From a bacterium (GTDB lineage Bacteria; JADJOY01): a DNA stretch of 37,985 nucleotides. Below the pieces are notes generated by a model, which saw only the letters and a program-made list of their open reading frames with translations, ran no database searches and was not told the origin of the DNA. Position 1 is the stretch's first letter, and every line of letters begins with the position of its first letter. Made by a program: the position numbers and the translations under genes. Where the stretch lies: NCBI GenBank assembly GCA_046331705.1, contig JAXLQJ010000067.1, positions 1 through 37,985 on the forward strand, in the 5' to 3' direction. Of this stretch, positions 4,841-32,856 are shown one piece after another.

Positions 4841-6238
4841 TCATGTCAGATACGTGAGGGCTTTGCGCATCAACGGATAGGTCGCGCCCGATGTCCACGC
4901 GTCGCGCAAGGTGCGGAGCAAGATGCGCGGCCGTCCGTAGAAGCGAACCAGCATCGTGCGTTGCATCGACTTCAACCATTCCACCGAGAGCGTCCCGCGG
5001 CTCGCCACGGGATTCGAGAAACTGCCACGAGCGGGATCGGATGCCCAGCCTTCGATGCGTCCCAGGCTCACCAGCTCCTCGCCGGAGCGGGTACCCGGCA
5101 GCGGACGGAAACCGTGGAAGTTGGCGCCGGTGAGGTCGAGACGGAGCGCCAGATCGAGCGTCGCCCTCACGTCCTCCGGCTCCTCGTCGGGGTAGCCGAG
5201 CATGAAGAAGCCGTGCACGGGGAATCCCTCGCTTCGCGCCAGGCGGACCTTCTCCTCGATCAGCGGGACCGACAGCGCCTTGCGCATGCGCTTCAGGATC
5301 CGCGGCGATCCCGACTCGATGCCCACGATGAGCGCATAGCAGCCTCCGGCGCGCATCTCGCGCAGCATCTCGCGCTCGAGCGTCTCGAGGCGCACACCGT
5401 TCGGCATCGTCCACGTGATGCCGAGCCCGCTCGCGCGCATGGCGCGGCTGAACCGGATCACGTAGTCGCGATCCCACGTGAAGTTGTCGTCCTCGATGTG
5501 GATCTCGCGGATGCCGTAGCGGCGATGCAGGTGCTCGATCTCGCTCAGCACGTGCTCGACCGAGCGGCTTCGCATCGCTCGGCCCGTGACGGTGAAGCCG
5601 GCGCAGAACGTACAGCGGTACGGGCACCCACGGGTCACGATGATGGGCGCGAAGGGCCGCTGGCGCACGAAGAGCGTCGGGGGGAAGCGCTGATACGCAC
5701 GCGGATCGATCGACTCCCAGGCGGGGAACCCGAGGGCGTCGAGATCGTCGCTGAAAAGCGGCTCCGACGAGACGATCCTGTCGCCCCGTCGAACGGTGAG
5801 GCCCGGGATCTCCGCCGGGTCGAGCGCTCGGCCGTCGGCGATGCGATCCGCGATCGCGACGAGGCCTCGCTCGCCCTCGCCCCGAAACGCGAGGTCGAGG
5901 CTCGGGATGTCGCGCAACGACTCGCTGGCGGCCGCCGACGCATGCGGTCCACCGAGGATCGTCGGCACGCCGGGCAGCGCACGGCGGACCACCGCGCACA
6001 TCGGCTCGATCGTCGAGACGTCGGACGTGAAGGCCGTGAGGCCCACCAGCTCCGGACGGAAGCGGTCGAGCGCGTCGTACCAATCGTCGAGATCGCCTCC
6101 GCTCAGCGTGAGATCGACGACCCTCGGCTGGTGGCCGGCGCGCGCGAGCGCCGCGGCGAGATAGCCGAGCCCGAGCGGCGGCAGGATCTGGAGTACCTGG
6201 CTGCGCGGGCGCGGAGGGACGGCGAGCAGGACTCGCAC
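4841..6238 (-). CDS. Cobalamin-binding radical SAM protein
   Basis: N-terminal B12-binding domain (PPLGLGYLAA, ILGGPHAS), CxxxCxxC (TRGCPYRCTFC), EDDNFT, GIESGS. GTG start. Confidence 0.9.
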   Translation of the reverse strand: MRVLLAVPPRPRSQVLQILPPLGLGYLAAALARAGHQPRVVDLTLSGGDLDDWYDALDRFRPELVGLTAFTSDVSTIEPMCAVVRRALPGVPTILGGPHASAAASESLRDIPSLDLAFRGEGERGLVAIADRIADGRALDPAEIPGLTVRRGDRIVSSEPLFSDDLDALGFPAWESIDPRAYQRFPPTLFVRQRPFAPIIVTRGCPYRCTFCAGFTVTGRAMRSRSVEHVLSEIEHLHRRYGIREIHIEDDNFTWDRDYVIRFSRAMRASGLGITWTMPNGVRLETLEREMLREMRAGGCYALIVGIESGSPRILKRMRKALSVPLIEEKVRLARSEGFPVHGFFMLGYPDEEPEDVRATLDLALRLDLTGANFHGFRPLPGTRSGEELVSLGRIEGWASDPARGSFSNPVASRGTLSVEWLKSMQRTMLVRFYGRPRILLRTLRDAWTSGATYPLMRKALTYLT

Positions 6239-6259
6239 GTCGTTCGTCCGGAGGGCGGG

Positions 6260-8264: not shown

Positions 8265-9451
8265 CGCGGCCGGCTCGTGCCCGACGGGAGCGCGAGGGTC
8301 TCGACCAGCTCGAGACCGAAGCCCTCGAGCCCGACCGGACGTAGTGCAGGATTGTGCGTGATGAGACGCAGCTTCTTGAGTCCGAGCCGCCGAAGCACCT
8401 GGGCGCCGAGACCGTAGTCGCGCAGCGCGGTGGGGTAGGTGTCGGTCTCGCGCAGATCCCCGAGCGCGTGCTCGACGGCTTCGGTGTGGCTCTTGAGCTT
8501 GCGCACCAGCCCGTCGGCGGTGAACGGCTTGAGGATGTAGAGGACGACACCGCAGGGGGCGCTGGCGATCTGCTCGATGGCGCGATGAAGCAACACGCCC
8601 TGGTCCCGCCGCAACGCCGTGAATGCATCGCCCCAGACGTCGCTCGAATGGACCCGTACCAGCGTGGGCACGTCGGGATCGATCGCGCCGCGCACCAGCG
8701 TCAGGTAGTGGAGCTGGTTCACCTTGTTGGTGAAGACGCGCACCTCGACCGGACCCGCGAGGTCGGTGTCGAGCCGCGCCCGCGCCACCTCGTCGACCAG
8801 CTCCTCGTTGGCGATCCGCCACGCGATCACGTCGGCGACGCTGACGATCGGAAGGTGGTGGTCGGCGGCGAGCTTGCGCAGCGCCGGCATGCGCGCCATC
8901 TCGCCGTCCTCTCCGAGCACGGCGCAGGTGACCGCCGCCGGACCGAAGCCCGCCAGCACCGTCAGGTCGGCCGCCGCCTCCGCGTGGGCCGCGCGCTCCA
9001 GCACGCCTCCCTCGCGGATGGCCACGGGGAAGACGTGTCCCGGCGAGATCAGGTCCTGCGGCCGGGTGTCCTCGGCCACGGCGACCTCGATCGTGCGTGC
9101 GCGGTCGGCGGCGCTGATGCCGGTGGTGACGCCGCGGCGGGCCTCGATGGAGACGGCGAACGCGGGGGTCGCGGGTCCGCGGTTCCGCACCGGCATCAAC
9201 GCCAGGCCCAGGCGGCGAATGCGCTCGAGCGTGAGCGCCACGCACACCAGCCCGCCACCGAAGCTGGCCATGAAGTTGACCGTCTCGGGGGTGATGCGCG
9301 CTCCCGCCATCACCAGCGCGCCTTCGCTCGAGTCGCGCTCGTCATCCGTGAGCACGACGAGACCGCCGTTGCGGATCGCCTCGATGGCGCGGGCGGCGCG
9401 GTGCCGGATGGCGTCGGGCTCGGGCAGGTGATGGGCAGGCGGTGTGTTCAC
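8261..9451 (-). CDS. RibBA/RibBX-like DHBP synthase-GTP cyclohydrolase II fusion with degenerate active sites
   Basis: C-terminal 396 aa of ORF 8261..10747, GTG start at 9451. RibB motifs TTGISAADRA and PGHVFP, and RibA-like RVHS..GD and RDYGLGAQVL. Several catalytic residues are substituted. Confidence 0.85.
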   Translation of the reverse strand: MNTPPAHHLPEPDAIRHRAARAIEAIRNGGLVVLTDDERDSSEGALVMAGARITPETVNFMASFGGGLVCVALTLERIRRLGLALMPVRNRGPATPAFAVSIEARRGVTTGISAADRARTIEVAVAEDTRPQDLISPGHVFPVAIREGGVLERAAHAEAAADLTVLAGFGPAAVTCAVLGEDGEMARMPALRKLAADHHLPIVSVADVIAWRIANEELVDEVARARLDTDLAGPVEVRVFTNKVNQLHYLTLVRGAIDPDVPTLVRVHSSDVWGDAFTALRRDQGVLLHRAIEQIASAPCGVVLYILKPFTADGLVRKLKSHTEAVEHALGDLRETDTYPTALRDYGLGAQVLRRLGLKKLRLITHNPALRPVGLEGFGLELVETLALPSGTSRPR

Positions 9452-9657
9452 GGGGCGGCTCTCGCGTCGCGGATCGTTGGGTCGGGGCGCGAGTATTCCA
9501 CTGGCGCCCAGAGCGTTCCAAGGACGCCCGAGCGCTGCAGCCGAGCGCCAGGCACCGTCGTCGGGTCCGGCGCTTGGAGCTCGCGGGCCGAACGACGAAG
9601 GGCGCGCTGCGCGGAACCCGCAGCACGCCCCTCGAGCGCGGTGGACGAAGCGCGTCG

Positions 9658-11130
9658 TCAGGCTTCGGGCATCGGCTCGCCGCCGCGCAGATCTTCGATC
9701 CTGAGCGGCCAGCTCGAAGCGGGCTCGGACGCCGTGCTGCCGACCACGCTCAAGGCCGGCGGCTCGTCGCACAGCTGCGCCGCGTCGCTCGCGGCGGCCG
9801 CGAGCTCGTTGCCGGCGCGCATCCACTTGTCTTCGTACTTCACCGTGCAATCGGTCTGCAGCGGTTGCGGGTAGTGGAAGGCGCGACCCTCGAAGTTGCG
9901 CATCAACGCCTTGGACTGGGTCAACGCGTTCAAGTAGTTGGGCGCGACGGGCGCCTTCCCACCACCGCCCGGCAGATCGACGACGAACGTGGGCACGGCG
10001 AAGCCGCTGGTCCAGCCGCGCAGCGACTCCATGATCTCGATGCCGGTCTCGACTGGCGTCCGGAAGTGCTCCAGCCCTTCCTCGTTGTCGCATTGGAAGA
10101 GGTAGTAGGGCCGGATGCGGTTTCGCACCAGCTTGTGCATCAGCTCCTTCACCACCCGCGGGCTCGAGTTGACGCCGCGGAGCAGCACCGTCTGATTGCC
10201 GAGCGGGATCCCGGCGTTGACGATGCGCGCGCAGGCCGCCTGGCTCTCGGAGCTCAGCTCCTTGGGATGGTTGAAGTGCGTGTTGATCCAGATGGGATGG
10301 TACTTGGCCAGCATCCGCACCAGATCGTCGGTGATGCGCATCGGCAAGAACATCGGCATCTTGGTGCCGAACCGGATGATCTCGATCGACGGGATCTCGC
10401 GCAGGTGAGAGACCACGTACTCCAGGTTCTTGTCCGACATGGTGAACGGGTCGCCGCCCGAGATCAGCACGTCGCGCACTTCCGGGTGCTTGCGCAGATA
10501 AGCGAGCGTCTGCTCGATCTGCTGCTTGGGCAGGACCTCGTTCGGCAGCCCGGTGAGGCGCTTGCGCGTGCAGAACCGGCAGTAGCTCGCGCACATGTTG
10601 TTGACGAGGAAGAGCACGCGGTCCGGATAGCGGTGCACGAGCCCAGGCGCCACCCGATGGGCGTCCTCGCCGAGGGAGTCCGTCATGCCCGAGCCGAGCC
10701 CGGACATCTCGGCACCCCGCGGCACGAACTGCATGCGCACCGGGCAATGCGGATCGTACGGGTCCATCAGTGCGCAGAGATAAGGCGTGATGGACATCTG
10801 GAACTCGCGCTGGGTGGAGAGGACCCCGTCACGCTCCTCGGGCGTGAGGTGAATGACCTGCTCCAACGCCTCGAGAGACTGAACGCAGTTCTGAAGCTGC
10901 CACCGCCAGTCCGCCCATTTCTCGGCGGGAACGTCCTTCCACAGATCGATCGCAGTGTGGGGTCGGCCGTGGCGGCACAAGTGAGGGTCGGCGTCGAGCT
11001 CCGCCGACCGTTCTCCCCTGGGGCTGACGGATGCCACCGGAGCGACCTTCGCTGCTCGAAGCGACGTGTCGCGCGACGCGATCTTGAGTCGGGGCCGCCG
11101 GCTACGAAGCCCCCTGGCTGGTTCGAGCAT
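9658..11130 (-). CDS. kamA: KamA-family radical SAM/PLP lysine 2,3-aminomutase-like protein
   Basis: HRYPDRVL, CASYCRFCTRKR, LISGGDP, NTHFNHP, RPYYLFQCD and the PLP-lysine motif DLPGGGGK. ATG 11130 is preceded by GAGGAGG. Confidence 0.9.
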   Translation of the reverse strand: MLEPARGLRSRRPRLKIASRDTSLRAAKVAPVASVSPRGERSAELDADPHLCRHGRPHTAIDLWKDVPAEKWADWRWQLQNCVQSLEALEQVIHLTPEERDGVLSTQREFQMSITPYLCALMDPYDPHCPVRMQFVPRGAEMSGLGSGMTDSLGEDAHRVAPGLVHRYPDRVLFLVNNMCASYCRFCTRKRLTGLPNEVLPKQQIEQTLAYLRKHPEVRDVLISGGDPFTMSDKNLEYVVSHLREIPSIEIIRFGTKMPMFLPMRITDDLVRMLAKYHPIWINTHFNHPKELSSESQAACARIVNAGIPLGNQTVLLRGVNSSPRVVKELMHKLVRNRIRPYYLFQCDNEEGLEHFRTPVETGIEIMESLRGWTSGFAVPTFVVDLPGGGGKAPVAPNYLNALTQSKALMRNFEGRAFHYPQPLQTDCTVKYEDKWMRAGNELAAAASDAAQLCDEPPALSVVGSTASEPASSWPLRIEDLRGGEPMPEA

Positions 11131-11306
11131 TGCTTCGGTGTCCTCCTCGGCGGTCTGGGTGACGTCGTTGCGACCGCGGGACCGATGTGCGCGCATGATA
11201 GGGGTCGAGGCTTTCGCCCACAAAGCGTGTGGGCTCGACGCGTGAGATTCCTCGCTGAGCGGGGTGCGTCGTCGTGGCATTCGAGTCGTCGGAACGCGTC
11301 CTGGTT

Positions 11307-11337
11307 CTTATCGTGAATGGATTAACTTCATGATAAG
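11307..11337. promoter_or_regulatory. Palindromic operator overlapping the kamA -10 element
   Basis: CTTATCGTGAA-N9-TTCATGATAAG: 11-bp inverted repeat with 1 mismatch, AT-rich in a GC-rich genome. Confidence 0.65.
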
Positions 11338-11349
11338 GAAGCTCGTCAA
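11321..11349 (-). promoter_or_regulatory. Putative sigma70 promoter for kamA
   Basis: Minus strand TTGACG-17 bp-GTTAAT, within a locally AT-rich patch of the 345-bp intergenic gap. Confidence 0.55.
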
Positions 11350-11475
11350 TCGACACAAGCGTTTTGTTGCGATCTCGATTCGATCTCGTCGTTCGTCGCG
11401 ACGAGGCAACGTCGAACGGTGAAGGACGTGAAGCGCGCCCGCGTCGCGACGTCTCGGGCGTCGATCGCGGTCACC

Positions 11476-13491
11476 TCAAGCGACCCGGCGCCCTGCGCGG
11501 AAGCGCCGGATCGCGGGTGCGAGAATGCGACCGATCAGATCGCGATACTCGATCCCCGCGCTCGCGGCGATGAGGCAGAGGTCCGACCAGCCCGGTGAGA
11601 GCCCGGGCAGCGGATTGAGCTCGACGAAGTTCACGCGTCCCGCCGCATCGAGCCGCAGATCCACCCGCGCCACGTCGCGGCAGCCGAGCGCGTGGAACGC
11701 GGTCAACGCGGCCTTGGTGAGCTCGCGCAGGAGCGCCGGGTCCACCCGCGCGGGGGTGTCGTAGCGGATCTCCTTGCTCCAGTCCTGCTTGTGCTCGAAG
11801 GCGTAGACCGGCCGCTTCTTGCGCTTGTCCAGGAACACGATCTCCATCGGCGGCAGCGCGCGTGGATTGCGCTCGCCGAGCAGCCCCACGGTGAACTCCC
11901 GGCCCGGCAGGTAGCCCTCCACCAGCGCCGGTTGCTGGTAGCGCTCGATCATCTCGCGGGCGACGGCGCGCGCCTGCGCTTCGTTCTCGACCACGCTCTT
12001 CGGCACCACGCCCTTCGAGCTGCCCTCGGTCACCGGCTTCACGATCGCCGGGAAGCCGAGCTCGCGGGGGAAGCGCTCGCGGCCGGTGTGCGCGAGGAAC
12101 CACGCCGGCGTCGCGACCCCCGCGGCGGCCACCAGCCGCTTGGCGAGCTCCTTGTCGAGCGCCATCGCGAGCGCCGCGGGATCGGAGCCGGTGTAGGGGA
12201 TGCCGAGCAGCTCGAGCAGCGCCGGCACCTGCGACTCGCGATTTCGGCCCAGCACGCCTTCCGCCATGTTGAAGACCACGTCGGGCGCCGCCGCCACCAG
12301 GCGAGTGGGGAGCTGGGGCGTCGCCTCGAGGTCGATCACCTCGTGGCCGAGCGACGCGATCGCGTCGTGGATGGCGCCGATGGTCTTCGGCGAGTCGTAC
12401 TCGGCCTCGCTCTCGTCGACGCCTTCGATCGGCGTCGTGCGCTTCACGTTGAACGTGAATCCGACGCGCAGCGGCCGCTTGCGCGTCCGCGCCGCGCGTC
12501 GCGCGTGCGTCGGGATCCCGTAGCGTCGCGCGGTGCTGCGGACGATCGCATCGAGCACTCGCTCCGGCCCCTCGAGACCGCGCAGCGCGGCCGCGACGCA
12601 CAGCGTGGCGCTCGGCTCGAGCCCCGGCAGCGGATCGACCTCGATGACGAACGGGGTCTCGTCCTCGGCGATGCGGAAGTCCACCCTGCCGAAGTCGCGG
12701 ATGTCGAGACACTCGATCACGGCGCGGGTCGTGCCCACGAGCGCTCGCCGCAACGACGTCGAGAGCCGGGCGGGGGCCTCGATGGTCCACGCGGGCAGCT
12801 CGGCGCGCGCGGCGGTCGAGCCCCGCGAGCGCCGCGCGCGCGCCGCCGAACGGGGACTTCCCGCGGGCCTTTCGCGCGGCACGATCGCGATCGGATCGAG
12901 CACGCCGCCGGGAGCGGCGCCCGCCTCCAGCACGGGCACGACCACGTGCCGGCCGGGAACCACCTCCTCGATCCACACGCCTTGGCCGCGCGCGAGCTCG
13001 GCGGTCACGCGCTCCTCGAGCATCGCGTAGGAGTCGATTCGCTCGACCTCGCCGGGCGCGGCGTCGCTGCGCAGGGTCACGGGCATGCGGAAGGTGTTGG
13101 GCGCGGTGTGGGCGAGATCGTCACGGTCGACGATGCGTCGGCTGCGCAGCGTGCGGATGCCGTGCGCCGCGAGGTGGCGGCGCGTCAGCGCCGGGTTGAG
13201 CGTGAGCGCGTGGACGGCGGCGGCCGAGCCCGTGTGGTGGAGGCCGAGGTCGGCGAAGAGCGCGGGGTAGAAGGACTCGCGACCGCGTCCGCCACGAGCG
13301 CGCGCGGTGTTGAGCACCAGGTCGGGAGCGAGCTGCGTCAGCAGGCTCACGGTCGCGACCAGCGGTTCGGCGACGTCGACCAGCGTGACCTCGTGTCCCA
13401 GTCGCGTGAGCGCCGCGGCCATGTCGCGTGCCGCTGCGTGCGCCTCGTTCGCGTCGCCGAGATCCGAGAGGTACGTGAACGCGATCTTCAT
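11476..13491 (-). CDS. Tandem (two-domain) D-Ala-D-Ala ligase-like ATP-grasp protein
   Basis: ATG 13491 (MKIAFTY) after GGAGG. C-terminal unit has VFNMAEG, YTGS, VKPVTEGSSKGV, RVDLRLD and ELNPLPGL. N-terminal unit has the corresponding but degenerate LNTARA, HTGS, RVDFRI and EVDPLPGL. Confidence 0.88.
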   Translation of the reverse strand: MKIAFTYLSDLGDANEAHAAARDMAAALTRLGHEVTLVDVAEPLVATVSLLTQLAPDLVLNTARARGGRGRESFYPALFADLGLHHTGSAAAVHALTLNPALTRRHLAAHGIRTLRSRRIVDRDDLAHTAPNTFRMPVTLRSDAAPGEVERIDSYAMLEERVTAELARGQGVWIEEVVPGRHVVVPVLEAGAAPGGVLDPIAIVPRERPAGSPRSAARARRSRGSTAARAELPAWTIEAPARLSTSLRRALVGTTRAVIECLDIRDFGRVDFRIAEDETPFVIEVDPLPGLEPSATLCVAAALRGLEGPERVLDAIVRSTARRYGIPTHARRAARTRKRPLRVGFTFNVKRTTPIEGVDESEAEYDSPKTIGAIHDAIASLGHEVIDLEATPQLPTRLVAAAPDVVFNMAEGVLGRNRESQVPALLELLGIPYTGSDPAALAMALDKELAKRLVAAAGVATPAWFLAHTGRERFPRELGFPAIVKPVTEGSSKGVVPKSVVENEAQARAVAREMIERYQQPALVEGYLPGREFTVGLLGERNPRALPPMEIVFLDKRKKRPVYAFEHKQDWSKEIRYDTPARVDPALLRELTKAALTAFHALGCRDVARVDLRLDAAGRVNFVELNPLPGLSPGWSDLCLIAASAGIEYRDLIGRILAPAIRRFRAGRRVA

Positions 13492-13691
13492 CGACGAGGC
13501 CTCCGCGCGTGCGCTCTCGTCGCGAGAGCCGGGGCGCTCGCTGCAAATGCCATCGGCCGTCGCGCGCGTCAAGGATCTTCGCGGCCGCCAGCGGCGACTT
13601 GTTGCGGACGGCGTGGGCGTGGTATCCGACCGCGCCGGTCGCGGTCGCGCGCGTGTGCGCGGAACATGACTCGATCGGTCGGCCATCCCCC

Positions 13692-15413
13692 ATGCCCATC
13701 CCCGCCGCGGCCGACCCGGGCACCCGAGCGCCGCGGCGGCGCTGGCTCGCGCTCGCGCTGGTCGCCGCCAGCGTCTGCGCGGCGCGCGACGCCGGCGCCG
13801 CCACGCTGGTGGAGTGGGGCGACGGATCCTTCGCGATCGACGGCGCGTATCGATTCCGGCTGGCCTACGCGTCCGAGGTGCCGGCCTACGCGACGCCGCC
13901 CCAAGCCACGCTCCCGATCACCGAAGGGCTCGACGCGGGGCTCACCGGCGAGCACCGACTGCGCGTGGAGCCACGCCTCGAGCTCTTCGGCCAGCTGAGC
14001 GTGCACGCGCAGATCGACGTGCTGGACGGCGTGCTCTTCAGCGACACGGGTGATCGCTCGTTCCTCGCCTATTCGGATCAGCCGCCGCCGAACGAGCTGG
14101 GCGACAGCCTCGACAGCTTCCGCGTCAACCGCGCGTGGGCCGAGTGGCGATCCCCGGCGGGCACGCTGCGCTTCGGTCGCCAGCCCAGCCATTGGGGTCT
14201 CGGCATGGTCGCCAACGACGGCGACCGCGACGACGCGGCGTTCGGCGATTCCCACCTGGGCGACGCCTCCGACCGCGTGCTCTTCGGCACCAAGCCACTC
14301 TCCGTGATCGAGGCGTTGACGACCGGCACGCGTCCCGACGCGGCGAGCGACCCGCTCACGCTCGGCCTCGGCTACGATTTCGGCGTCGATCGCGGCGCCG
14401 TCGTCGAGCCCGGCGACGACGTCACGCAGTATCTGGCGGCGCTGCTGTGGGATGCCCGCGGCTCGACGGCGTTTCGCGAGCCGGTCGCCCATCGCGGCGC
14501 CGGCGGGCCGCGCGGCGCCGCCAGCCGCATCGGGTTCTACGCGGTCCGCCGCGAGCAGACCCACGACGACCGCCTCGTGAGCGGACCGGCACGTCCCGCG
14601 CGCGAGATCCTCGATGCCTGGGTTCTCGACACCAGCGGCCGCATCGTGGTGGCAGCGGATACCGCACGCGGATTCGAGCTCCGCGTCGAGTGGGAAGCCG
14701 CCTACGTGACGGGCAAGACCAACTTCACCGTGTCGCGGGTCGCCGCGACTCCGTCGGACCCGTTTCCGGTGAGCGACGCCGAGCAATGGGGCGGCATCGC
14801 GCGGCTGGTCGCCGAGTCGGAGTCGGTGGCGATCCGGCTCGAGGGCGGCGCGGCCTCGGGTGACGGCAACCGCTTCGACGACCGCGTCACGGATTTCCGA
14901 TTCCATCCCGACTACAACGTCGGCTTGATCCTCTTCGACGAGCTGTTGGCGACGGTGACCGCGGCCCAGGCGTTCAACGTGGTGGACCAGCTCGGCGAGG
15001 GCGGCCCCGTGGCGTTCCTCGGCGCGAACTACCTCGCCAGCGACGGCTCCGTCACCAACGCGCTCTACCTCAATCCGGTCGTGGAGGTGGATCCCGTGCC
15101 TGGCACCTCGCTGGTCGCGGGCCTGGTCTGGGCTCGCGCCCTCGAGCCGTGGGTCGACCCCTTCAACGACGCGTTCTTCGGGGGTGGTGCCGGCACGCTC
15201 AACTCGTTCGGCGGGGACGTCCGCTCGAAGGATCTCGGCGTCGAGGTGGACGTCGCGATCCACCAGGCGCTGCCGCTCGGCCTCGACGTGGTGCACGCCG
15301 AGGCCGCGCTCGAATACGGTCACCTCTTCAGCGGTGCCGCGTTCCGCGACGGGCAGGGCGCCGATCGGGTCGACATCGACGAGGTCCGGCTGCGTCTCGA
15401 TCTCGGCTGGTGA
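13692..15413 (+). CDS. Outer-membrane beta-barrel protein (TIGR04551-like myxobacterial/alginate-export-like)
   Basis: Signal peptide, motif VNRAWAEW...LRFGRQPSHWGLGMVANDG...DRVLF, and C-terminal beta-signal LRLDLGW. Confidence 0.7.
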   Translation: MPIPAAADPGTRAPRRRWLALALVAASVCAARDAGAATLVEWGDGSFAIDGAYRFRLAYASEVPAYATPPQATLPITEGLDAGLTGEHRLRVEPRLELFGQLSVHAQIDVLDGVLFSDTGDRSFLAYSDQPPPNELGDSLDSFRVNRAWAEWRSPAGTLRFGRQPSHWGLGMVANDGDRDDAAFGDSHLGDASDRVLFGTKPLSVIEALTTGTRPDAASDPLTLGLGYDFGVDRGAVVEPGDDVTQYLAALLWDARGSTAFREPVAHRGAGGPRGAASRIGFYAVRREQTHDDRLVSGPARPAREILDAWVLDTSGRIVVAADTARGFELRVEWEAAYVTGKTNFTVSRVAATPSDPFPVSDAEQWGGIARLVAESESVAIRLEGGAASGDGNRFDDRVTDFRFHPDYNVGLILFDELLATVTAAQAFNVVDQLGEGGPVAFLGANYLASDGSVTNALYLNPVVEVDPVPGTSLVAGLVWARALEPWVDPFNDAFFGGGAGTLNSFGGDVRSKDLGVEVDVAIHQALPLGLDVVHAEAALEYGHLFSGAAFRDGQGADRVDIDEVRLRLDLGW

Positions 15414-21841: not shown

Positions 21842-23203
21842 TGTTGTTAGCAAGTGAAAGTGTCCGGTGGTTTTGACAAGTGATCTGTCCGGTCAGATCT
21901 CAGGCGGCCTCACCGACCCCCGAGGGGGTCGGTGCGCGAAGCAGGGGTAGAGGGTTGCCGTCACGGTCGAACCGTCCGAGGCATTGCTCGGCTCGCCACA
22001 CCGTGTGACTGGCGTCCAAGTGCCGCCGCACGAGGACCCGCATCCCTTCGCAGCTGCGACGCCCGCGCTGCTTGGCGATCTGCAGCCGCACCTTCTCCAG
22101 GACCACGGTGTTGTCCTTGCCCACGACCCGTTCGTGTTCGTGACACAGCACCTGATTCAGGTCCACGCCCCCCAGCCCCACGAAGGCCGACGCGGGGTCC
22201 CGAGCCGGGCGCGCAAACAATCGGTTGTACTCCGGACGAAACCGCTCCTCGAGGTAGCGGTTGGCGTCGACCACGGTGCGGATCCCGGCCACCCGTAGCT
22301 CGTTGACCAGGCGGTCCTGCAACGTCCGGTTCGCCCGTTCACTTCGGCCTCGCGCCTGGGGAGAGCGCGCCCGGATGTGCTCGATCCCCAAGCGATCCAA
22401 CGCGCGGCCGACCTGCGTCCGCATCGTCGGATCGGGCGCCTCGCCGGCACGACGCGTGATCGCCGCCCAGCTCGCGCGATCCGTATAGAGCGTCATCGGC
22501 AGACCCTCTTGCTCAAACACCGCCTTTAACCCCGCCATGACCGTGTCCGTGCTCTCGCTTTCCTCGATCCGACCGTAGAGCAGCTCGCTGGTGGCATCGT
22601 CGACCAGGGCGATCAGGGTCTGCTTCTCGTCGGGGCACAGCGCCAGCCATGCGTGGGGGCTGCCGTCGAGGTGCAGCATCTCGCCCCGGCAGGCCTTCGG
22701 CTCGCGGCGACGACGGTGCCGCCCCCGCGACCGCCGTCGGCGTACCAGGCCAGCCGCCTGCAGCGCCGTCTTCACCGTCGTGTACGAAAGCGTCACCGCA
22801 TGCTCTCGCTGCGCGATCTGGTGAAAGTGGCGGACGTTGAAGCCGGTGTAGGTGTCGCGGTACAGCCGCAGCACGCGCTCGAGCTCCGCCGCGGGTGTGC
22901 GGCGGCCCGAGGGCCGACCTCGGCGACGGTCGAGCAAGCCGTCGTAACCGTGGCTCTCGAAGCGCGCCTTCCACCGACGCAGAGACCGTGGATCCATGCC
23001 CAGGATGTCGCTCGCCTGGATCCAATTGATCTCCCCGCTCATCGCTCGAAGCATCACCTCACGAATCCGCATCGCCCGCTCCAGCGCGGTCGGACCGTAG
23101 AGCATCGGCAGCATCCCCCTTGGGGACCGCCCTCTACCTCCCGAACGCCGAAAGCGGACACTTCACTTGCTCTTCGGAGCGGACAGATCATGTGCTCCCT
23201 ACA
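21842..23203 (-). mobile_element. Complete IS1202-family (ex-ISNCY) insertion sequence, 1362 bp
   Basis: Ends TGT...ACA, with two subterminal repeats per end (left GCAAGTGAAAGTGTCCG and ACAAGTGATCTGTCCG; right, reverse-complemented, GCACATGATCTGTCCG and GCAAGTGAAGTGTCCG). Flanked by 17-bp direct repeats. Confidence 0.92.
21900..23114 (-). CDS. DDE transposase (IS1202/ISNCY type)
   Basis: N-terminal HTH, then GEMLHLDGSPHAW, VDDAT, LYTDR and SPQARGRSERANRTLQDRL. Alternative start at 23105. Confidence 0.92.
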   Translation of the reverse strand: MLPMLYGPTALERAMRIREVMLRAMSGEINWIQASDILGMDPRSLRRWKARFESHGYDGLLDRRRGRPSGRRTPAAELERVLRLYRDTYTGFNVRHFHQIAQREHAVTLSYTTVKTALQAAGLVRRRRSRGRHRRRREPKACRGEMLHLDGSPHAWLALCPDEKQTLIALVDDATSELLYGRIEESESTDTVMAGLKAVFEQEGLPMTLYTDRASWAAITRRAGEAPDPTMRTQVGRALDRLGIEHIRARSPQARGRSERANRTLQDRLVNELRVAGIRTVVDANRYLEERFRPEYNRLFARPARDPASAFVGLGGVDLNQVLCHEHERVVGKDNTVVLEKVRLQIAKQRGRRSCEGMRVLVRRHLDASHTVWRAEQCLGRFDRDGNPLPLLRAPTPSGVGEAA

Positions 23204-27639: not shown

Positions 27640-28644
27640 TCACGGGCGCTTGGACGGCGGGAAGAGCACGTCTAGGCGATCGAGGTCGGCGGCGCGCCGG
27701 AACTCGTCCCCGGAGAAGTGGCGCTCGCGCAGCTGATTGAGCGCGTCCACCCGCTTCACGGGATCGAGTGACGGATCGCCGAGGATCGCGTCGCGCTCGA
27801 CGCGGTAGGCGGCGAAGCGCGCGTCCCACGTGGCGTCGGTGGCGCGCGGCGCGGCGGCCACCCCACTCGGCGCGGCCTCGTGGGAGCCGATCGTGGGGCG
27901 ATCGTCCGGGGATGGCGCCAGCGATGGGTCCACGCGGTGGATCAGGCGCGCGAGCGCCGCCTCGCTGGCATCGTGCTCCGGGTCGAAGAGGGTGGCGGCC
28001 AGCGCGTCGCCGAAGATCGTGCGCTCGATCGCGCGGGTCTCGGCGAGCCGCTCGGCCAGCGCACGCACGTCCCGGCCCGCGGGCGGAAGTGCCCGCGTGG
28101 CGTCGACGTAGCGGAAGTAGCGATCGAGGAGGTCGCGTGCCTCGCTCGCCGCGGGTGCCGCCAGCTCGCGATCGATCGTCGCCTCGATCGCCTGACGCGC
28201 CTGCTCGCGGCGCCAATCGCCGATCTCGTCGTGGATCTCGCGGAAGAGTTGGATCGCGCCGGGAGTGGGCCGGAAATGGCCAGCGCCATCCACCTCCAGC
28301 AGCCCGGCACGTGACGGCGGCGGGTCCAGGGCGGCGCTCGGCGCGACGACGGGCTCGGGCGCTCGGGGCGCGGGCGCGAGCATGCGCGGCATCCCGTGAC
28401 CCGAGTCCTCCGCTGCCGCTTCCGCGGGTGGTTCGGGGACGATCGGCGGGGCGGGCGTCCCGGGCAGCCGGGGCAGGTACTTGGCGGGAACCCGGAAGCG
28501 CTCGGGATCGGGTGGCGGCAGCGTCAGGCTGAGCGTGCCCACGACCAGCGTCGTGACGAGAACCGCGCAGCCCGCCGCCACGACCGCGAGCCGCGCGAGC
28601 CGTCCGTGCGACGCGCCCGAGCCACCGTTGCCGAACCGATCCAT
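27640..28644 (-). CDS. Lipase chaperone (Lif/LimA)-like protein
   Basis: N-terminal TM anchor, Pro/Ala-rich spacer, helical core LLDRYFRY..IFGDALAATLFDPE and C-terminal WDARFAAYRVERDAIL..LNQLRERHFSGDEFRR. Alternative GTG start at 28656. Confidence 0.72.
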   Translation of the reverse strand: MDRFGNGGSGASHGRLARLAVVAAGCAVLVTTLVVGTLSLTLPPPDPERFRVPAKYLPRLPGTPAPPIVPEPPAEAAAEDSGHGMPRMLAPAPRAPEPVVAPSAALDPPPSRAGLLEVDGAGHFRPTPGAIQLFREIHDEIGDWRREQARQAIEATIDRELAAPAASEARDLLDRYFRYVDATRALPPAGRDVRALAERLAETRAIERTIFGDALAATLFDPEHDASEAALARLIHRVDPSLAPSPDDRPTIGSHEAAPSGVAAAPRATDATWDARFAAYRVERDAILGDPSLDPVKRVDALNQLRERHFSGDEFRRAADLDRLDVLFPPSKRP

Positions 28645-28824
28645 CGTCTCACGCACGCCTGCGCACCGCCGGATGCGCGTCGCTCGCGAGCCGCCGAGCG
28701 AACGTGCCCGGGTATGCTACACGAGCCGGAGCGGCTTGGATCCGCGCGCGGGCCGCCACGGCCGCGTCCGCACAGTGCGACGGTGAACGGCCCGAACCGA
28801 CCCGCGTCTCCGTCGCCCGCGCAC

Positions 28825-31800
28825 ATGTCGCCCACCTGGCACGTCTCGATCTCGCATCCGCCCGCGGAGCGAGCCGCCGCGATGCGCTTGGCCGAGCGGC
28901 TGCTGGGTGTCGGGATCGCGGTGGCGCTCGACGACTGGTCGCTCGCGAGTCGGGAAGGCTCCCACGAGCGATCCGCGGGGGCGTGGAGCGAGGCGTTGCT
29001 CGTCTCGCGCGCCGCCTTCGACGAACGCTGGCACGCGGAGCTCGCACGGCGCCTGCTCGGCGGCGCCGTGGCGGGACGTCGCCGGCTGGTGCCGGTGCTG
29101 CTCGAGGACCTCGGCGAGGTGCCCGCGGCCTTGCGCTCGCGGCCGAGCGTGGACGCGTCCACGGACCCGACGTTCGCCAGCACCGCGTGGCTGTGGCGAT
29201 TGGTGGCGATGCTGCGTGGGGAACGCGGCGACTCGCCGCCGCCGAGCGATTGGCCGGCGACGCTCGCGCCCCTCGCCGGGCAAGCCGTGATCGCTGCGGT
29301 CGATCTGCGGCTGACGGCCGATCGCATCATCGCCACGCTCGACGGGCGAGAGGTCGAGCACGTCTTCTCCGCCGACGCGCTCGCGACCCTCGAGTCGGCG
29401 ACCCATGCCGGCGGGCTCGACCGGACGGCGCTCGCGCCGGTGCTGCTCGGTGGAGCCGTCGGGGCTTGCGTTCGGGACGCGGTGCGCGCCGAGCGCGAGC
29501 GTGCGGGCTCGGTCGAGCTGCGCTTCGAGGTCGCGCACCGCCCGTGGCAGCCCTTCGATTGGGAGAGCGCGCTGGCGTCGGCGCTCGGCGTGTCGTCCGG
29601 CGCGCAGGGAGTCGCGGGCTCGCCGTGGCTGCGCATCGCGCGCGTTCAGCCATCGTGCGCGGTGGCGCTGCCCGCGGCGCGCGGCGGACCGCTCGAGCTC
29701 CTCGTGATCCTCGCCAGTCCGGATTCGCGTCATGGCTCGGGCACGCGCGTCGACGTCGAGCGCGCGTCGCGCGCGCTGCTGGCCGCGGTGGAGCCAGCCT
29801 GCGCTGGCGGGCTCGTGCGCGTGACCCTGCGGGATCGGGCCGTCGCGAACGAGATCCGCGCCACGGTCGCCGAGCGTCCGCCGCACGTGGTGCTGTTGGT
29901 GGCGGCGATGCGTCAAGGAGAGCTGGCGCTGGCACGGCCCGACGATCGCGAGGAACGCATGGTCCCGTCGCGCTGGGTCGCCGAGGCGCTCGGGGGGCCG
30001 AGCGCCGTCCCGCTGCTGATCGTGGCGAACGCGCCGCTCAAGGACGCCGTCACTCCGCCGCGCGATCTGGCGCTCGAGGCCGCGCGCGTGGGCTACGAGC
30101 TGGTGGCCGCGGGCCTGCCCGCCGTGCTGGCGCTTTCCGACGTCGAGGGGCACGCCGCACTCGTTTCTCGGCTGCTCGCCCACGCGAGCGCCGACGCGAA
30201 CGACTCCTTGCGGGACGTGTTCGCGCGGGCGCGAGCGGTGGGAGACGCGTCGAGCGACGCGTCCGAGTCTCTCGCTCCTCCGACCGCGCTCTTCCTCACG
30301 ACACCGCTGGTGCGTCCGGTCCTGGCGAGCGGCGGCCGCGCGGAAGACGGCAGCACGACTGCGCCGCAACCGCCCCGCGTCGGCGTGCTGGGACGGCGCG
30401 GCGAGCTGCGCGCGTTGCGCAAGGTGTTGCAGGCCACCGATCGCTCGGGGCTCTGGATCACGGGCGCCGCCGGCGTGGGCAAGACGACGCTCGCCGCCGC
30501 GCTCGTGGAGGCGCACGACGACGCGCCACGCCTGGCGGTCACGCTCACCGGGCGCGTGGTGCCCGAGGACATCGTCGAGGAGGTCGGCCGACGGATCCGC
30601 GCGCAGCTGCGCGTGAGCTACGAGCGCGAGGACCCCGAGGCCGATGGCCGCGAACCGTTGCGGGTGCTGGCCGAGTATCTGTGCCGCGCGGACGTACCGT
30701 GGCGCGAGCGCTGGGAGCGGCTGACGCGGGAGACGGCGGGACGGCTGGCGATCGTGATCGTTCTGGACGCCTTCGAGGAGAATCAGGACGACGACGGCCG
30801 GATCATCGACGGCAGCCTGCGCGAGCTGCTGGAGGTCTGGCCGCGTGAGGCGGGCGCGCCGCGCTCGGTCGTGGCGTCGCGGCGGCCACTCGCCCGCGAC
30901 GAGCTGCGCCCTGCGCACCTCGAGACGGTGCTGCTCGAGCCGCTCCCCGCGGACGCGGCGAGCTGGATGCGCATCGGCACGGAACACGCGGTCGCGTTGC
31001 CGCGGGAGCTCGCCGAGCGCTTCGCCGCTGCCTGCGGCGGGGTGCCGCGCCGCCTCCAGCTGCTCGAGTCGGTGTTGGCGTCGGGTGGCACGTCGGCGCT
31101 CGCGGACGTGCTCGCGAGCGACCACGCGGATCTGGTGCCGAGCAGCATCGCGCGGCTGATCGCCGGTCTGGCGAGCCCGTCGGCGCGGACCCTGCTGCGG
31201 CGCGCGTGCGTGCATCGCGTCGCGGTGGATCGGCTGGGCCTCGCCTGGCTGATCGGGCGCGAACGCGACCAGCACCACGACGCCGCGGTCGCGGAGCGGC
31301 TGGCGCGCTTCGACGAGGCGATCCGCGCCGCGCGGGTGCGCGGCGAGGAGCCGAGCGTCGAGTCGTTGGGGCTCTCGCGCGACGACCAGCGGGTGCTGGA
31401 GCAGGACATCGCGTCGCGCTTGCGGCCGCCGATCGAGCCGCCCGAGGGGCTGGATGAAGCGCTCGACGAGCTGGTCGCTGCAGGCTTGCTCGAGCGTCGG
31501 GGGGAAGCGGAAGGAAGTCGCTTCGTGGTGCCGCGCTGGCTCGTGCCCCATCTCGACGCCACGGCGGAACCGGGTGAACGGGTGCTCGCCCACCAGCGGG
31601 CAGCGCGCTACCGGCACTGGCGGGTGCGCACGCTGCCGCGGCCGGCGCACGCCGACCTGGCGGATCTCGTCGAGCTTCGCCGCCACCTGCTCGCAGCCGA
31701 CGAGCTGCAGCAGGCGGCGCGAATCGCCGAGGTGGTGGTCACGCAGCTCGATGCGCTGGGTGCGCTGGAGCGCGCCGAGCGGCTCTGCCACGAGGTGCTG

Positions 31801-32856
31801 GGGCAGCTGCCGCGGGACTCCGCCGCGGCGCGCGCGTTCCGCCATCAGCTGGGCATCTGCGCACGCCGACGTGGCCGCATCAGCGAGGCTCGAACCTTCT
31901 TCCACGAAGCCGCGACCCGCGAGGACGCGCACCGCGACGGGCCCGGGCTGGCGCGCTCGTGGGGCGAGCTCGGGGTGGTGGCGGCGCTCGACGGCGACCT
32001 CGCCGCAGCGCAGGCGTGGTTCGAGAAGTCGCTGGCGCTGGCGGTCGAGGCCGGCGACGAGGACGCCGAGGCGACGAATCTGCACCACTTGGCCGTGCTG
32101 GCACGGCATGCCGGCGATCTCGCGTCCGCGTCCTCCCGGATCGAGCGCGCGTTGGCGATCCGGGAAGCGCGTGCATCCGACCCCGAGCTGCTCGGCGTGC
32201 TGCTCACCGCCGGCGAGCTGCTGCGCGCGCGTCAACGCTTCGACGATTCGGCGGCGGCCTCGTCGCGGGCCTTGGTGCTGGCGCGGGCGCGCGGTGACAC
32301 GGCGCGCGCCCATCGGGCGTGGCTCGCGCTGGCGCGCACGGCGCGCGAGCGCGATCAGCCCGAAGAGGCCGCTCGTCACCTTGGCGCCGCGCTGGAGGCG
32401 GCGGCGGCGCGCGGCGACCGCGCGCACGTGAGCGAGGCCGCTGCCGAGCTGGGACGCTTGGCCGAGGTTCGCGGCGAGCCGGACGAGGCGTGGCGGGCGT
32501 TCCGGCGCGCGCTCGAGTCGTCGGAGCGCGACGGCGATCGCGAGGGCATGATCGCGGCGTATCTGGATCTGGCGCGGCTCGATCGGCGGCGCGGTCACGC
32601 GATCGACGCCCTCGGCTGGGCGGTGCACGCGGTGGCGGCGGCGCTCACGATCGGCTCGGCGCGCACCGCCGAGGCGCTGGATGCGCTCACCGAGCTGGCC
32701 CGCAACGCGGGCAGCAGGAAGCGCTGGCGCTCGAGCTGGAAGCGCGCGTACGACGTGGAGCCGCCGCCCGAGGTCGTCGCGTGGGTCGAGGCGCCGTGGT
32801 GGCGTCGCGTGGCGCGGCGCCGCGAGATCCGCGCGCGCGAGGAAGCGCGCGGCTGA
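28825..32856 (+). CDS. TIR-like - CHAT-like - STAND NTPase - TPR protein (NLR-like)
   Basis: ATG 28825. TIR_2-like VSISH..RLAERL..GIAVALDDW..RLVPVLL, CHAT-like FDWE..PLELLVILASP..AGLPAVLA, Walker A GAAGVGKTT, Walker B IVIVLDAFE, C-terminal TPR array. Confidence 0.78.
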   Translation: MSPTWHVSISHPPAERAAAMRLAERLLGVGIAVALDDWSLASREGSHERSAGAWSEALLVSRAAFDERWHAELARRLLGGAVAGRRRLVPVLLEDLGEVPAALRSRPSVDASTDPTFASTAWLWRLVAMLRGERGDSPPPSDWPATLAPLAGQAVIAAVDLRLTADRIIATLDGREVEHVFSADALATLESATHAGGLDRTALAPVLLGGAVGACVRDAVRAERERAGSVELRFEVAHRPWQPFDWESALASALGVSSGAQGVAGSPWLRIARVQPSCAVALPAARGGPLELLVILASPDSRHGSGTRVDVERASRALLAAVEPACAGGLVRVTLRDRAVANEIRATVAERPPHVVLLVAAMRQGELALARPDDREERMVPSRWVAEALGGPSAVPLLIVANAPLKDAVTPPRDLALEAARVGYELVAAGLPAVLALSDVEGHAALVSRLLAHASADANDSLRDVFARARAVGDASSDASESLAPPTALFLTTPLVRPVLASGGRAEDGSTTAPQPPRVGVLGRRGELRALRKVLQATDRSGLWITGAAGVGKTTLAAALVEAHDDAPRLAVTLTGRVVPEDIVEEVGRRIRAQLRVSYEREDPEADGREPLRVLAEYLCRADVPWRERWERLTRETAGRLAIVIVLDAFEENQDDDGRIIDGSLRELLEVWPREAGAPRSVVASRRPLARDELRPAHLETVLLEPLPADAASWMRIGTEHAVALPRELAERFAAACGGVPRRLQLLESVLASGGTSALADVLASDHADLVPSSIARLIAGLASPSARTLLRRACVHRVAVDRLGLAWLIGRERDQHHDAAVAERLARFDEAIRAARVRGEEPSVESLGLSRDDQRVLEQDIASRLRPPIEPPEGLDEALDELVAAGLLERRGEAEGSRFVVPRWLVPHLDATAEPGERVLAHQRAARYRHWRVRTLPRPAHADLADLVELRRHLLAADELQQAARIAEVVVTQLDALGALERAERLCHEVLGQLPRDSAAARAFRHQLGICARRRGRISEARTFFHEAATREDAHRDGPGLARSWGELGVVAALDGDLAAAQAWFEKSLALAVEAGDEDAEATNLHHLAVLARHAGDLASASSRIERALAIREARASDPELLGVLLTAGELLRARQRFDDSAAASSRALVLARARGDTARAHRAWLALARTARERDQPEEAARHLGAALEAAAARGDRAHVSEAAAELGRLAEVRGEPDEAWRAFRRALESSERDGDREGMIAAYLDLARLDRRRGHAIDALGWAVHAVAAALTIGSARTAEALDALTELARNAGSRKRWRSSWKRAYDVEPPPEVVAWVEAPWWRRVARRREIRAREEARG

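Follow-up and report, generated by a model that had tools for sequence, protein, structure and literature searches.

The KamA/ATP-grasp locus

The window analyzed here is contig JAXLQJ010000067.1 of the bacterial assembly GCA_046331705.1 over its full length of 37,985 nucleotides (C67 among the contigs of this genome), and the system under study consists of two genes on its minus strand, one for a tandem ATP-grasp protein and one for a KamA-type aminomutase (Table 1). Genes were called from the third-position G+C, the window being high in G+C (70%). The KamA gene lies downstream of the ATP-grasp gene with 195 bp between the two, in agreement with a first-pass annotation that had been made from the letters of the window and had placed KamA downstream of a 671-residue protein. 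The MKIAFTY start assigned to the latter is common to its ATP-grasp relatives in three sister genomes. DNA of this stretch also occurs in metagenomes that several studies obtained from activated sludge and wastewater. As described below, KamA is associated with one type of ATP-grasp ligase far beyond the lineage of the window, and this association may point to a pathway that builds an amide or peptide of beta-lysine.

Table 1. Features of the KamA/ATP-grasp locus, in positions of the window
Feature	Positions	Strand	Description
Tandem ATP-grasp gene	11476-13491	minus	671 aa, start MKIAFTY
N-terminal ATP-grasp unit, residues 1-335	12487..13491	minus	Ddl-like fold, ATP site lost
C-terminal ATP-grasp unit, residues 336-671	11476..12486	minus	predicted type-A Ddl-like amide ligase, intact
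Conserved intergenic element	11307..11369	minus	CAACAAAACGCTTGTGTC, 17-nt spacer, TATCAT -10-like hexamer
KamA gene	9658-11280	minus	540 aa

Properties of the tandem ATP-grasp protein

The 671-residue protein matched the Pfam family Dala_Dala_lig_C with 149.5 bits in two stretches. Its AlphaFold2 model had a predicted local distance difference test score (pLDDT) of 83 and a predicted template modeling score (pTM) of 0.51, and because of the latter value the relative placement of the two halves is unsure. When this model was submitted to Foldseek, only Ddl structures were retrieved, with target template modeling (TM) scores of 0.72-0.85, and the names given to relatives in the ESM Atlas were likewise restricted to "Ddl family." More than 1100 homologues were collected. 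Those that aligned over the full length (48-54% identity) were fused double ATP-grasp proteins, mostly from Myxococcota. A tree of 99 single ATP-grasp units was calculated by a quick method, with support from the Shimodaira-Hasegawa-like approximate likelihood ratio test (SH-aLRT) only. Both halves of the window protein fell among Ddl-like ATP-grasp units, the N-half inside the N-halves of the fused family (support 100) and the C-half inside the C-halves (support 96). The whole fused family was placed inside a clade (support 95) that also contains the first ligase of the KamA-linked loci described below and is here termed type A, and the second ligase of these loci formed a separate clade, termed type B (support 99).

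The fold of both halves thus matched the first-pass description of two Ddl-like ATP-grasp units, but the N-half has lost the residues of its ATP site. In five of five sequences from the family of the window, the N-half has P and R in place of the two ATP lysines and D in place of the Mg asparagine, lacks the EGSS loop, and shows R or a gap where the omega-loop lysine would be; the names of these ATP-site and Mg residues follow what we take to be the numbering of Escherichia coli DdlB. Of 39 other N-halves of fused proteins, 38-39 retain the residues at these positions. The N-half also sits on a long branch (0.82) in the unit tree, and its amino acids change two to three times faster than those of the C-half. 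Ratios of nonsynonymous to synonymous substitution (dN/dS) were 0.16-0.44 for the N-half vs 0.07-0.18 for the C-half according to the Nei-Gojobori method, which is rough at high G+C, and thus stayed below 1 for the faster half as well. Save for residues 210-232, the N-half is folded in the AlphaFold2 model. Taken together, its residues and substitution pattern indicate that it is likely a pseudo-enzyme that is retained for structure and is under purifying selection.

Every ATP, Mg, and catalytic position is kept in the C-half. Matches of the protein to solved Ddl structures were weak and confined to this half (best 8EVV, 135 bits), which shares ~40-45% of its residues with the first ligase in KamA-linked loci. 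Judged by these residues and by its place in the tree, the C-half is an intact type-A ATP-grasp amide ligase.

KamA resembles lysine 2,3-aminomutase

When KamA was compared with the NCBIfam models, the AblA equivalog (TIGR03820) gave the best score of all, 505.9 bits, which missed the cut-off of 525.4 by 20 bits. The score for the KamA family as a whole (TIGR00238) was 351.8 bits (353.5 in the genome search) and lay well over the cut-off of 199.2. The models for glutamate 2,3-aminomutase (TIGR04368; 426.9 bits, cut-off 650), arginine 2,3-aminomutase (389.3 bits, cut-off 600), and EpmB (TIGR03821; 230.3 bits, cut-off 369.3) were all missed. The sole solved relative, lysine 2,3-aminomutase (LAM; PDB 2A5H), aligned over 365 residues with 468 bits (E 2.6e-139). 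This alignment confirmed the earlier statement that KamA keeps both lysine-binding aspartates. Residues 293, 330, and 337 of 2A5H are matched by the motifs FQCD and VVDLPGGGGK; we take Asp293 and Asp330 to be the aspartates that bind the epsilon-amine of lysine and Lys337 to be the lysine that carries pyridoxal 5'-phosphate (PLP). The two aspartates, which are replaced in glutamate 2,3-aminomutase, are thus kept in a protein that also misses the cut-off for that enzyme. The CxxxCxxC motif of radical S-adenosylmethionine (SAM) enzymes is present as well. Among 36 aligned KamA homologues (35 loci plus the window), each read where it was long enough, the equivalents of Asp293, Asp330, and Lys337 were kept in every readable sequence except three tandem paralogues from Myxococcaceae, which have R at the position of Lys337.

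The protein is composed of a core (residues about 101-480), an Arg-rich N-terminal extension of ~100 residues, and a C-terminal tail of ~65 residues. The extension (window 10981-11280) is absent from the 2A5H enzyme. Two sister genomes share its reading frame, starting with MPRRR, and because of this conservation it is probably translated. No second gene of the KamA family was found in the genome, which is 95.7% complete. The model scores and the conserved residues support the assignment of KamA as a lysine-type 2,3-aminomutase.

The Myxococcaceae exceptions were looked at separately. In this family two KamA paralogues occur in tandem (L103:3632-5008, L091, L093, and L098), and the distant one is 32-33% identical to the window KamA, has R aligned to the PLP lysine, and with 184.4 bits misses the cut-off of the KamA family (199.2). 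The neighbors at Myxococcaceae KamA loci (a kinase, SpoIID, and QueA) gave no functional hint.

KamA and type-A ligases are linked across phyla

The neighborhood of the ligase was analyzed in 80 ligase loci, with one genome per species, of which 42 were of the Myxococcota fused type and 38 were of other types. KamA was present within the locus in 19 of these 38 and in only one of the 42. The linked loci contain KamA plus two ligase units and come from Bathyarchaeia, Thermoplasmatales, Acidobacteriota, Gemmatimonadota, Planctomycetota, Desulfovibrionales, and Ignavibacteria, among others. Clustering of the open reading frames (ORFs) over the KamA-linked loci returned the ligases, KamA, and shadow ORFs only, with the small GNAT discussed below merged into the main cluster. 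Within the family of the window, the fused ligase was found beside KamA in all five other genomes. Thirty-five unrelated genomes were searched in addition. All four that encode a type-A ligase (E <= 2.2e-64) also encode a LAM-like KamA (E <= 2.6e-113), with the two genes adjacent in three of the four, and only two of the 31 genomes without a type-A ligase contain a KamA that reaches E <= 1e-100.

Natural gene fusions provided an independent line of evidence. Of 54 KamA homologues with 771 residues or more, 37 combine the KamA domains PF04055/PF12544 with the ligase domain PF07478. The ligase part of such fusions scored 183-311 bits against the C-half of the window protein vs 59-117 bits against the type-B ligase of the same genome, and the C-half is 34-50% identical to it. 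The fact that KamA is naturally fused to exactly the type-A ligase is the strongest argument that this ligase acts on the KamA product. We conclude that the linkage of KamA with type-A ligases is not due to chance and is conserved far beyond the lineage of the window. The first-pass annotation had named a lack of conserved linkage as the outcome that would speak against a common pathway; the neighborhoods (19/38 loci, 5/5 family genomes) and fusions (37/54) gave the opposite result.

Two further fusion proteins, P0134 and P0151, were noted in the course of this search. One unites Peptidase_S51, type-A ligase, and KamA domains, and the other, from the eukaryote Paratrimastix, carries KamA and GNAT domains.

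Remaining cassette parts on another contig

Besides KamA and the two ligase units, a GNAT protein of ~160 residues was present in 12 KamA-linked loci. In the genome of the window, a ligase that falls into the type-B clade of the unit tree is encoded at C8:197716-198642 and is directly followed by a small GNAT gene (C8:198650-199117). The same pair was found in three sister genomes and in three Myxococcaceae genomes. The GNAT is a generic member of its superfamily with RimI as best match (38 bits); the AblB model (TIGR03827) was not among its matches at E <= 0.001 and had no match at this threshold anywhere in the 95.7%-complete genome. With the C-half of the fused ligase in the type-A clade and KamA downstream of it, the window on balance appears to contribute KamA and the type-A ligase to a widespread set of four, completed by type-B ligase and GNAT, which in this genome is split over two loci.

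A possible lead as to the product came from the Myxococcota-type fusions. A homologous ORF follows the fused ligase in 23 of 41 loci, and the one member scanned was assigned to Peptidase_S58. The genome of the window contains one S58 gene, on C9. Peptidase_S58 is the family of DmpA/BapA-type aminopeptidases, members of which cleave N-terminal beta- or D-amino acids. The presence of such a protein beside the Myxococcota fusions would fit a peptide containing a beta-amino acid, and we treat it as a lead only.

A conserved element upstream of KamA

The intergenic element listed in Table 1 contains a promoter-like pair, TTGTGT/TATCAT, with a spacer of 17 nt. It is overlapped by an imperfect palindrome, CTTATCATGAA-N9-TTCACGATAAG, as read from the alignment. 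The block is nearly invariant in all six genomes of the family, and its flanks diverge. The only other near-copy in the genome, with 3 mismatches in 31, is located at C17:108792-108822, upstream of a gene for a MerR-family regulator of 176 residues (L115:4859-5389). Because the near-copy precedes the regulator's own gene, this protein is a candidate binder of both sites. A scan for the sigma-70 consensus did not find a promoter, and Rfam gave no match in 9300-13800. The conservation and layout of the element suggest that it is probably KamA's own regulated promoter.

Four metatranscriptome runs from three studies yielded contigs with 99% identity that cover parts of KamA only, within 9843-11311. 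In three of the runs (two studies) the contigs stop at 11309-11311, some 30 nt ahead of the ATG start codon. This common end is a weak hint of a KamA-specific transcript 5' end, with DNA carry-over as another possible origin of the contigs. The ligase gene was covered by no contig in the four runs, which are uninformative on its expression.

Proposed pathway

On the basis of these results, we favor the following sequence of reactions as somewhat more probable than not. KamA would convert L-lysine to beta-lysine. With ATP, the type-A unit would generate an acyl phosphate and link beta-lysine to a partner through an amide bond, for which the dead N-half may stand in structurally for the second subunit of a Ddl. 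The type-B ligase would add a second amide bond, and the GNAT would acetylate an amine. These reactions would yield a small N-acetylated amide or peptide of beta-lysine in the cytoplasm, e.g. a compound resembling a compatible solute. KamA, placed under its own conserved promoter and operator, may in addition supply beta-lysine to EpmA for the modification of elongation factor P (EF-P). A composite and more far-reaching reading, with a probability of about 0.35, is less likely than not. Bacteria and archaea would widely make an undescribed N-acetylated amide or peptide of beta-lysine by means of the cassette; in the lineage of the window, one KamA gene with a MerR-type operator would feed both this product and the beta-lysylation of EF-P, and the N-half of the fused ligase would have become structural. 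The idea put forward in the first-pass annotation, that beta-lysine is ligated by the ATP-grasp protein, is upheld as far as the conserved coupling of KamA to a ligase outside cell-wall synthesis is concerned. It has to be modified in that the N-half is dead, the type-B ligase and the GNAT reside on C8, and EpmA and EF-P offer a second possible sink.

Several observations weigh against the favored pathway. Every chemical step in it is inferred. The nearest relatives of the fused ligase (48-54% identity) are not linked to KamA in 41 of 42 loci, and the adjacency seen in the window could therefore be a lineage-specific rearrangement. The type-B ligase and the GNAT lie on another contig than KamA and not at the same locus, and two of the six family genomes (86% and 90% complete) gave no match to the GNAT at E <= 1e-15. 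KamA stays 20 bits below the AblA equivalog cut-off, and the clostridial enzyme has cysteines, which we take to form its zinc site, that are missing from KamA. Co-transcription with the ligase gene is only putative, given the 195 bp and the conserved promoter-like element between the genes. Finally, the occurrence of EpmA together with an EF-P bearing a KPGKG loop provides a second, known use for beta-lysine.

Alternative functions of KamA and the ligase

The last point leads to the most serious alternative, namely that KamA is an enzyme of EF-P modification only, i.e. a counterpart of EpmB, and that its position beside the ATP-grasp gene is without functional meaning. The first-pass annotation had noted that none of the usual partners (epmA/efp, ablB, kamDE) is present; this is true of the window, but EpmA is encoded elsewhere in the genome (C14:14117-15082; 310.8 bits, cut-off 286.9), and EF-P genes are located on C11 and C21, of which the C11 copy has the KPGKG loop. 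EpmA scored over the cut-off in six of six genomes of the phylum and in four of the five Myxococcota genomes searched. All Myxococcota KamAs that were scored stayed under the cut-off for EpmB, so that EpmA, if active there, must be fed by a LAM-type KamA. A role restricted to EF-P is further favored by the status of the window KamA as the sole member of its family in the genome and by its own conserved promoter-like element. It is difficult to reconcile with the model scores (EpmB 230.3 vs 369.3, AblA 505.9), with the adjacency of the ligase in all five other family genomes, with the linkage or fusion of KamA to type-A ligases across phyla, and with the retention of the remaining cassette parts in the genome. 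We therefore consider an exclusive function in EF-P modification unlikely. That KamA serves EF-P in addition to the ligase pathway is an even bet.

Two other explanations fare considerably worse. Being closest to the AblA/clostridial LAM type, KamA might start lysine fermentation (kamA-kamDE-kdd-kce-kal) or, with an AblB-type acetyltransferase, make N-epsilon-acetyl-beta-lysine. A single PF09043 aminomutase is indeed encoded in the genome, on C9, but this protein has the dimerization domain of ornithine aminomutase, and it is assigned to the ornithine pathway because a MutL-like protein, 2,4-diaminopentanoate dehydrogenase, and a PLP enzyme are encoded beside it. An AblB needed for the osmolyte route was missing from the genome at the threshold given above. 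Both routes are thus very improbable, with kdd, kce, and kal outside the search. Still less credible is the notion that the 671-residue protein serves peptidoglycan synthesis, as a ligase forming D-Ala-D-Ala or D-Ala-D-X, with KamA as an unrelated neighbor. Such a role is suggested by the fact that only Ddl families and Ddl structures match the protein and by its score against NF002378, 242.9 vs a cut-off of 243; this value is the sum over three stretches of a double protein. For TIGR01205 the score was 184.6 vs 245.65, and all Ddl equivalog models were far under their cut-offs. The gene is located outside any mur or division and cell wall (dcw) context, and the canonical ddl (363 bits, cut-off 243) follows murC and murB on C12. 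In the 671-residue protein the omega-loop lysine is followed by Q, vs Y in the genome's true Ddl, one half has no ATP site, and the fused ligase has the family-specific motifs EAEYDSP and GWSDL, of which the former, in the N-terminal domain, is missing from the true Ddl at the aligned columns. With a true ddl in the murC-murB-ddl string, a cell-wall function can be excluded for practical purposes.

The genes surrounding the PF09043 aminomutase deserve mention on their own account. The segment C9:128503-135436 constitutes a D-ornithine 4,5-aminomutase cluster, with the ornithine aminomutase dimerization and B12 domains, the MutL-like protein, the PLP enzyme, and the 2,4-diaminopentanoate dehydrogenase.

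Implications of the KamA/ligase association

The enzymes discussed here all come from known families, and their combination into a pathway, as well as its product, is without description in the literature searched: no account of a KamA/ATP-grasp pathway was found in the open full-text literature, with subscription journals and supplementary files outside this scope. To our knowledge, only few fates of beta-lysine have been recognized, i.e. EF-P modification, the osmolyte acetyl-beta-lysine, lysine fermentation, and some antibiotics. The ties between KamA and ATP-grasp ligases in many phyla and in fusion proteins point to a further, common fate. The preferred pathway of ligation and acetylation finds a useful test case in the present genome, where the parts are separated, KamA is single, and one ligase half is naturally dead. 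Since this half is dead, fewer candidate units are left for handling beta-lysine. The data also raise the question whether a LAM-type KamA can serve EpmA in lineages without EpmB.

Other features of the window

On the minus strand, KamA is followed by a RibBA-like gene and by genes for a DUF885 protein, a B12-binding radical-SAM protein, a LOG-like protein, an acetoacetate-CoA ligase (978 bits vs a cut-off of 639), and a FadL-type porin. The order of these eight genes, i.e. the ligase gene, KamA, and the six downstream, is retained in another genus of the same family and was met in none of the 80 ligase loci fetched from outside it. Because the synteny is confined to the family, the genes downstream of KamA were not counted as part of the system.

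The RibBA-like gene (8261 to about 9400, minus strand), which lies directly 3' of KamA, did not reach the cut-off of any NCBIfam model, with a weak score of 65.8 (vs 205.85) for the GTP cyclohydrolase II half. A second RibBA with 46% identity to it is encoded on C3; the window copy is a paralogue and is syntenic in the family. The gene for the B12-binding radical-SAM protein (4841-6259) gave about 70 tblastn matches over some 35 contigs of the genome, an unusually large expansion. Elsewhere in the window, an ORF of 1513 codons (28315-32856) carries TIR, NACHT/AAA, and TPR domains, an architecture of the STAND signaling/defense type. An IS481-like transposase ORF with helix-turn-helix domains and an integrase core (21900-23162) is located between the region of a Big_5 protein and two FadL-like genes.

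The contig of the window also occurs a second time in the assembly, at C4:42189-79757, with 94.4% identity and 947 gap openings. This copy is nearly devoid of long ORFs, and its flanks on C4 are normal. It was considered as a paralogous second locus and rejected, being an indel-ridden duplicate of the entire contig. It seems that the locus was assembled twice, the C4 version being redundant and rich in errors.

Comparison with known systems

Among characterized enzymes, KamA is most similar to lysine 2,3-aminomutase (2A5H/AblA), with which it shares the CxxxCxxC motif, the PLP lysine, and both aspartates and which provides its best-scoring model. It differs from this enzyme in the shortfall from the AblA cut-off, in its N-terminal extension and C-terminal tail, and in the absence of kamDE and ablB partners. 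The EpmA/EpmB system is similar in that a KamA-family enzyme for beta-lysine occurs in the same genome as EpmA over its cut-off and an EF-P with the KPGKG loop. Unlike EpmB, the window KamA does not reach the EpmB cut-off, and its gene is not beside epmA or efp. The fused ligase has the fold of the D-Ala-D-Ala ligases DdlA and DdlB and, in its C-half, their ATP, Mg, and catalytic residues; it is set apart from them as a tandem fusion in which one half is dead, by the motifs EAEYDSP and GWSDL, and by a Q where the omega-loop Tyr would stand.

For the proposed pathway as a whole, two precedents can be named. The AblA/AblB pathway makes N-epsilon-acetyl-beta-lysine. Like the cassette, it combines a beta-lysine synthase with an acetyltransferase and leads to a small cytoplasmic derivative of beta-lysine. 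The cassette would differ in its generic GNAT of ~160 residues, in the addition of two ATP-grasp ligases, and in the distribution of its parts over two loci. The Ngg/AsnO system is responsible for the synthesis of N-acetylglutaminylglutamine amide, in which a GNAT and an ATP-grasp ligase build an N-acetylated dipeptide osmolyte. Its ligase belongs to another ATP-grasp subfamily, it has no aminomutase, and it handles alpha-amino acids only. As a functional analogy, not as a sign of family membership, it nevertheless sets the precedent for a GNAT and an ATP-grasp ligase that together make an N-acetylated dipeptide.

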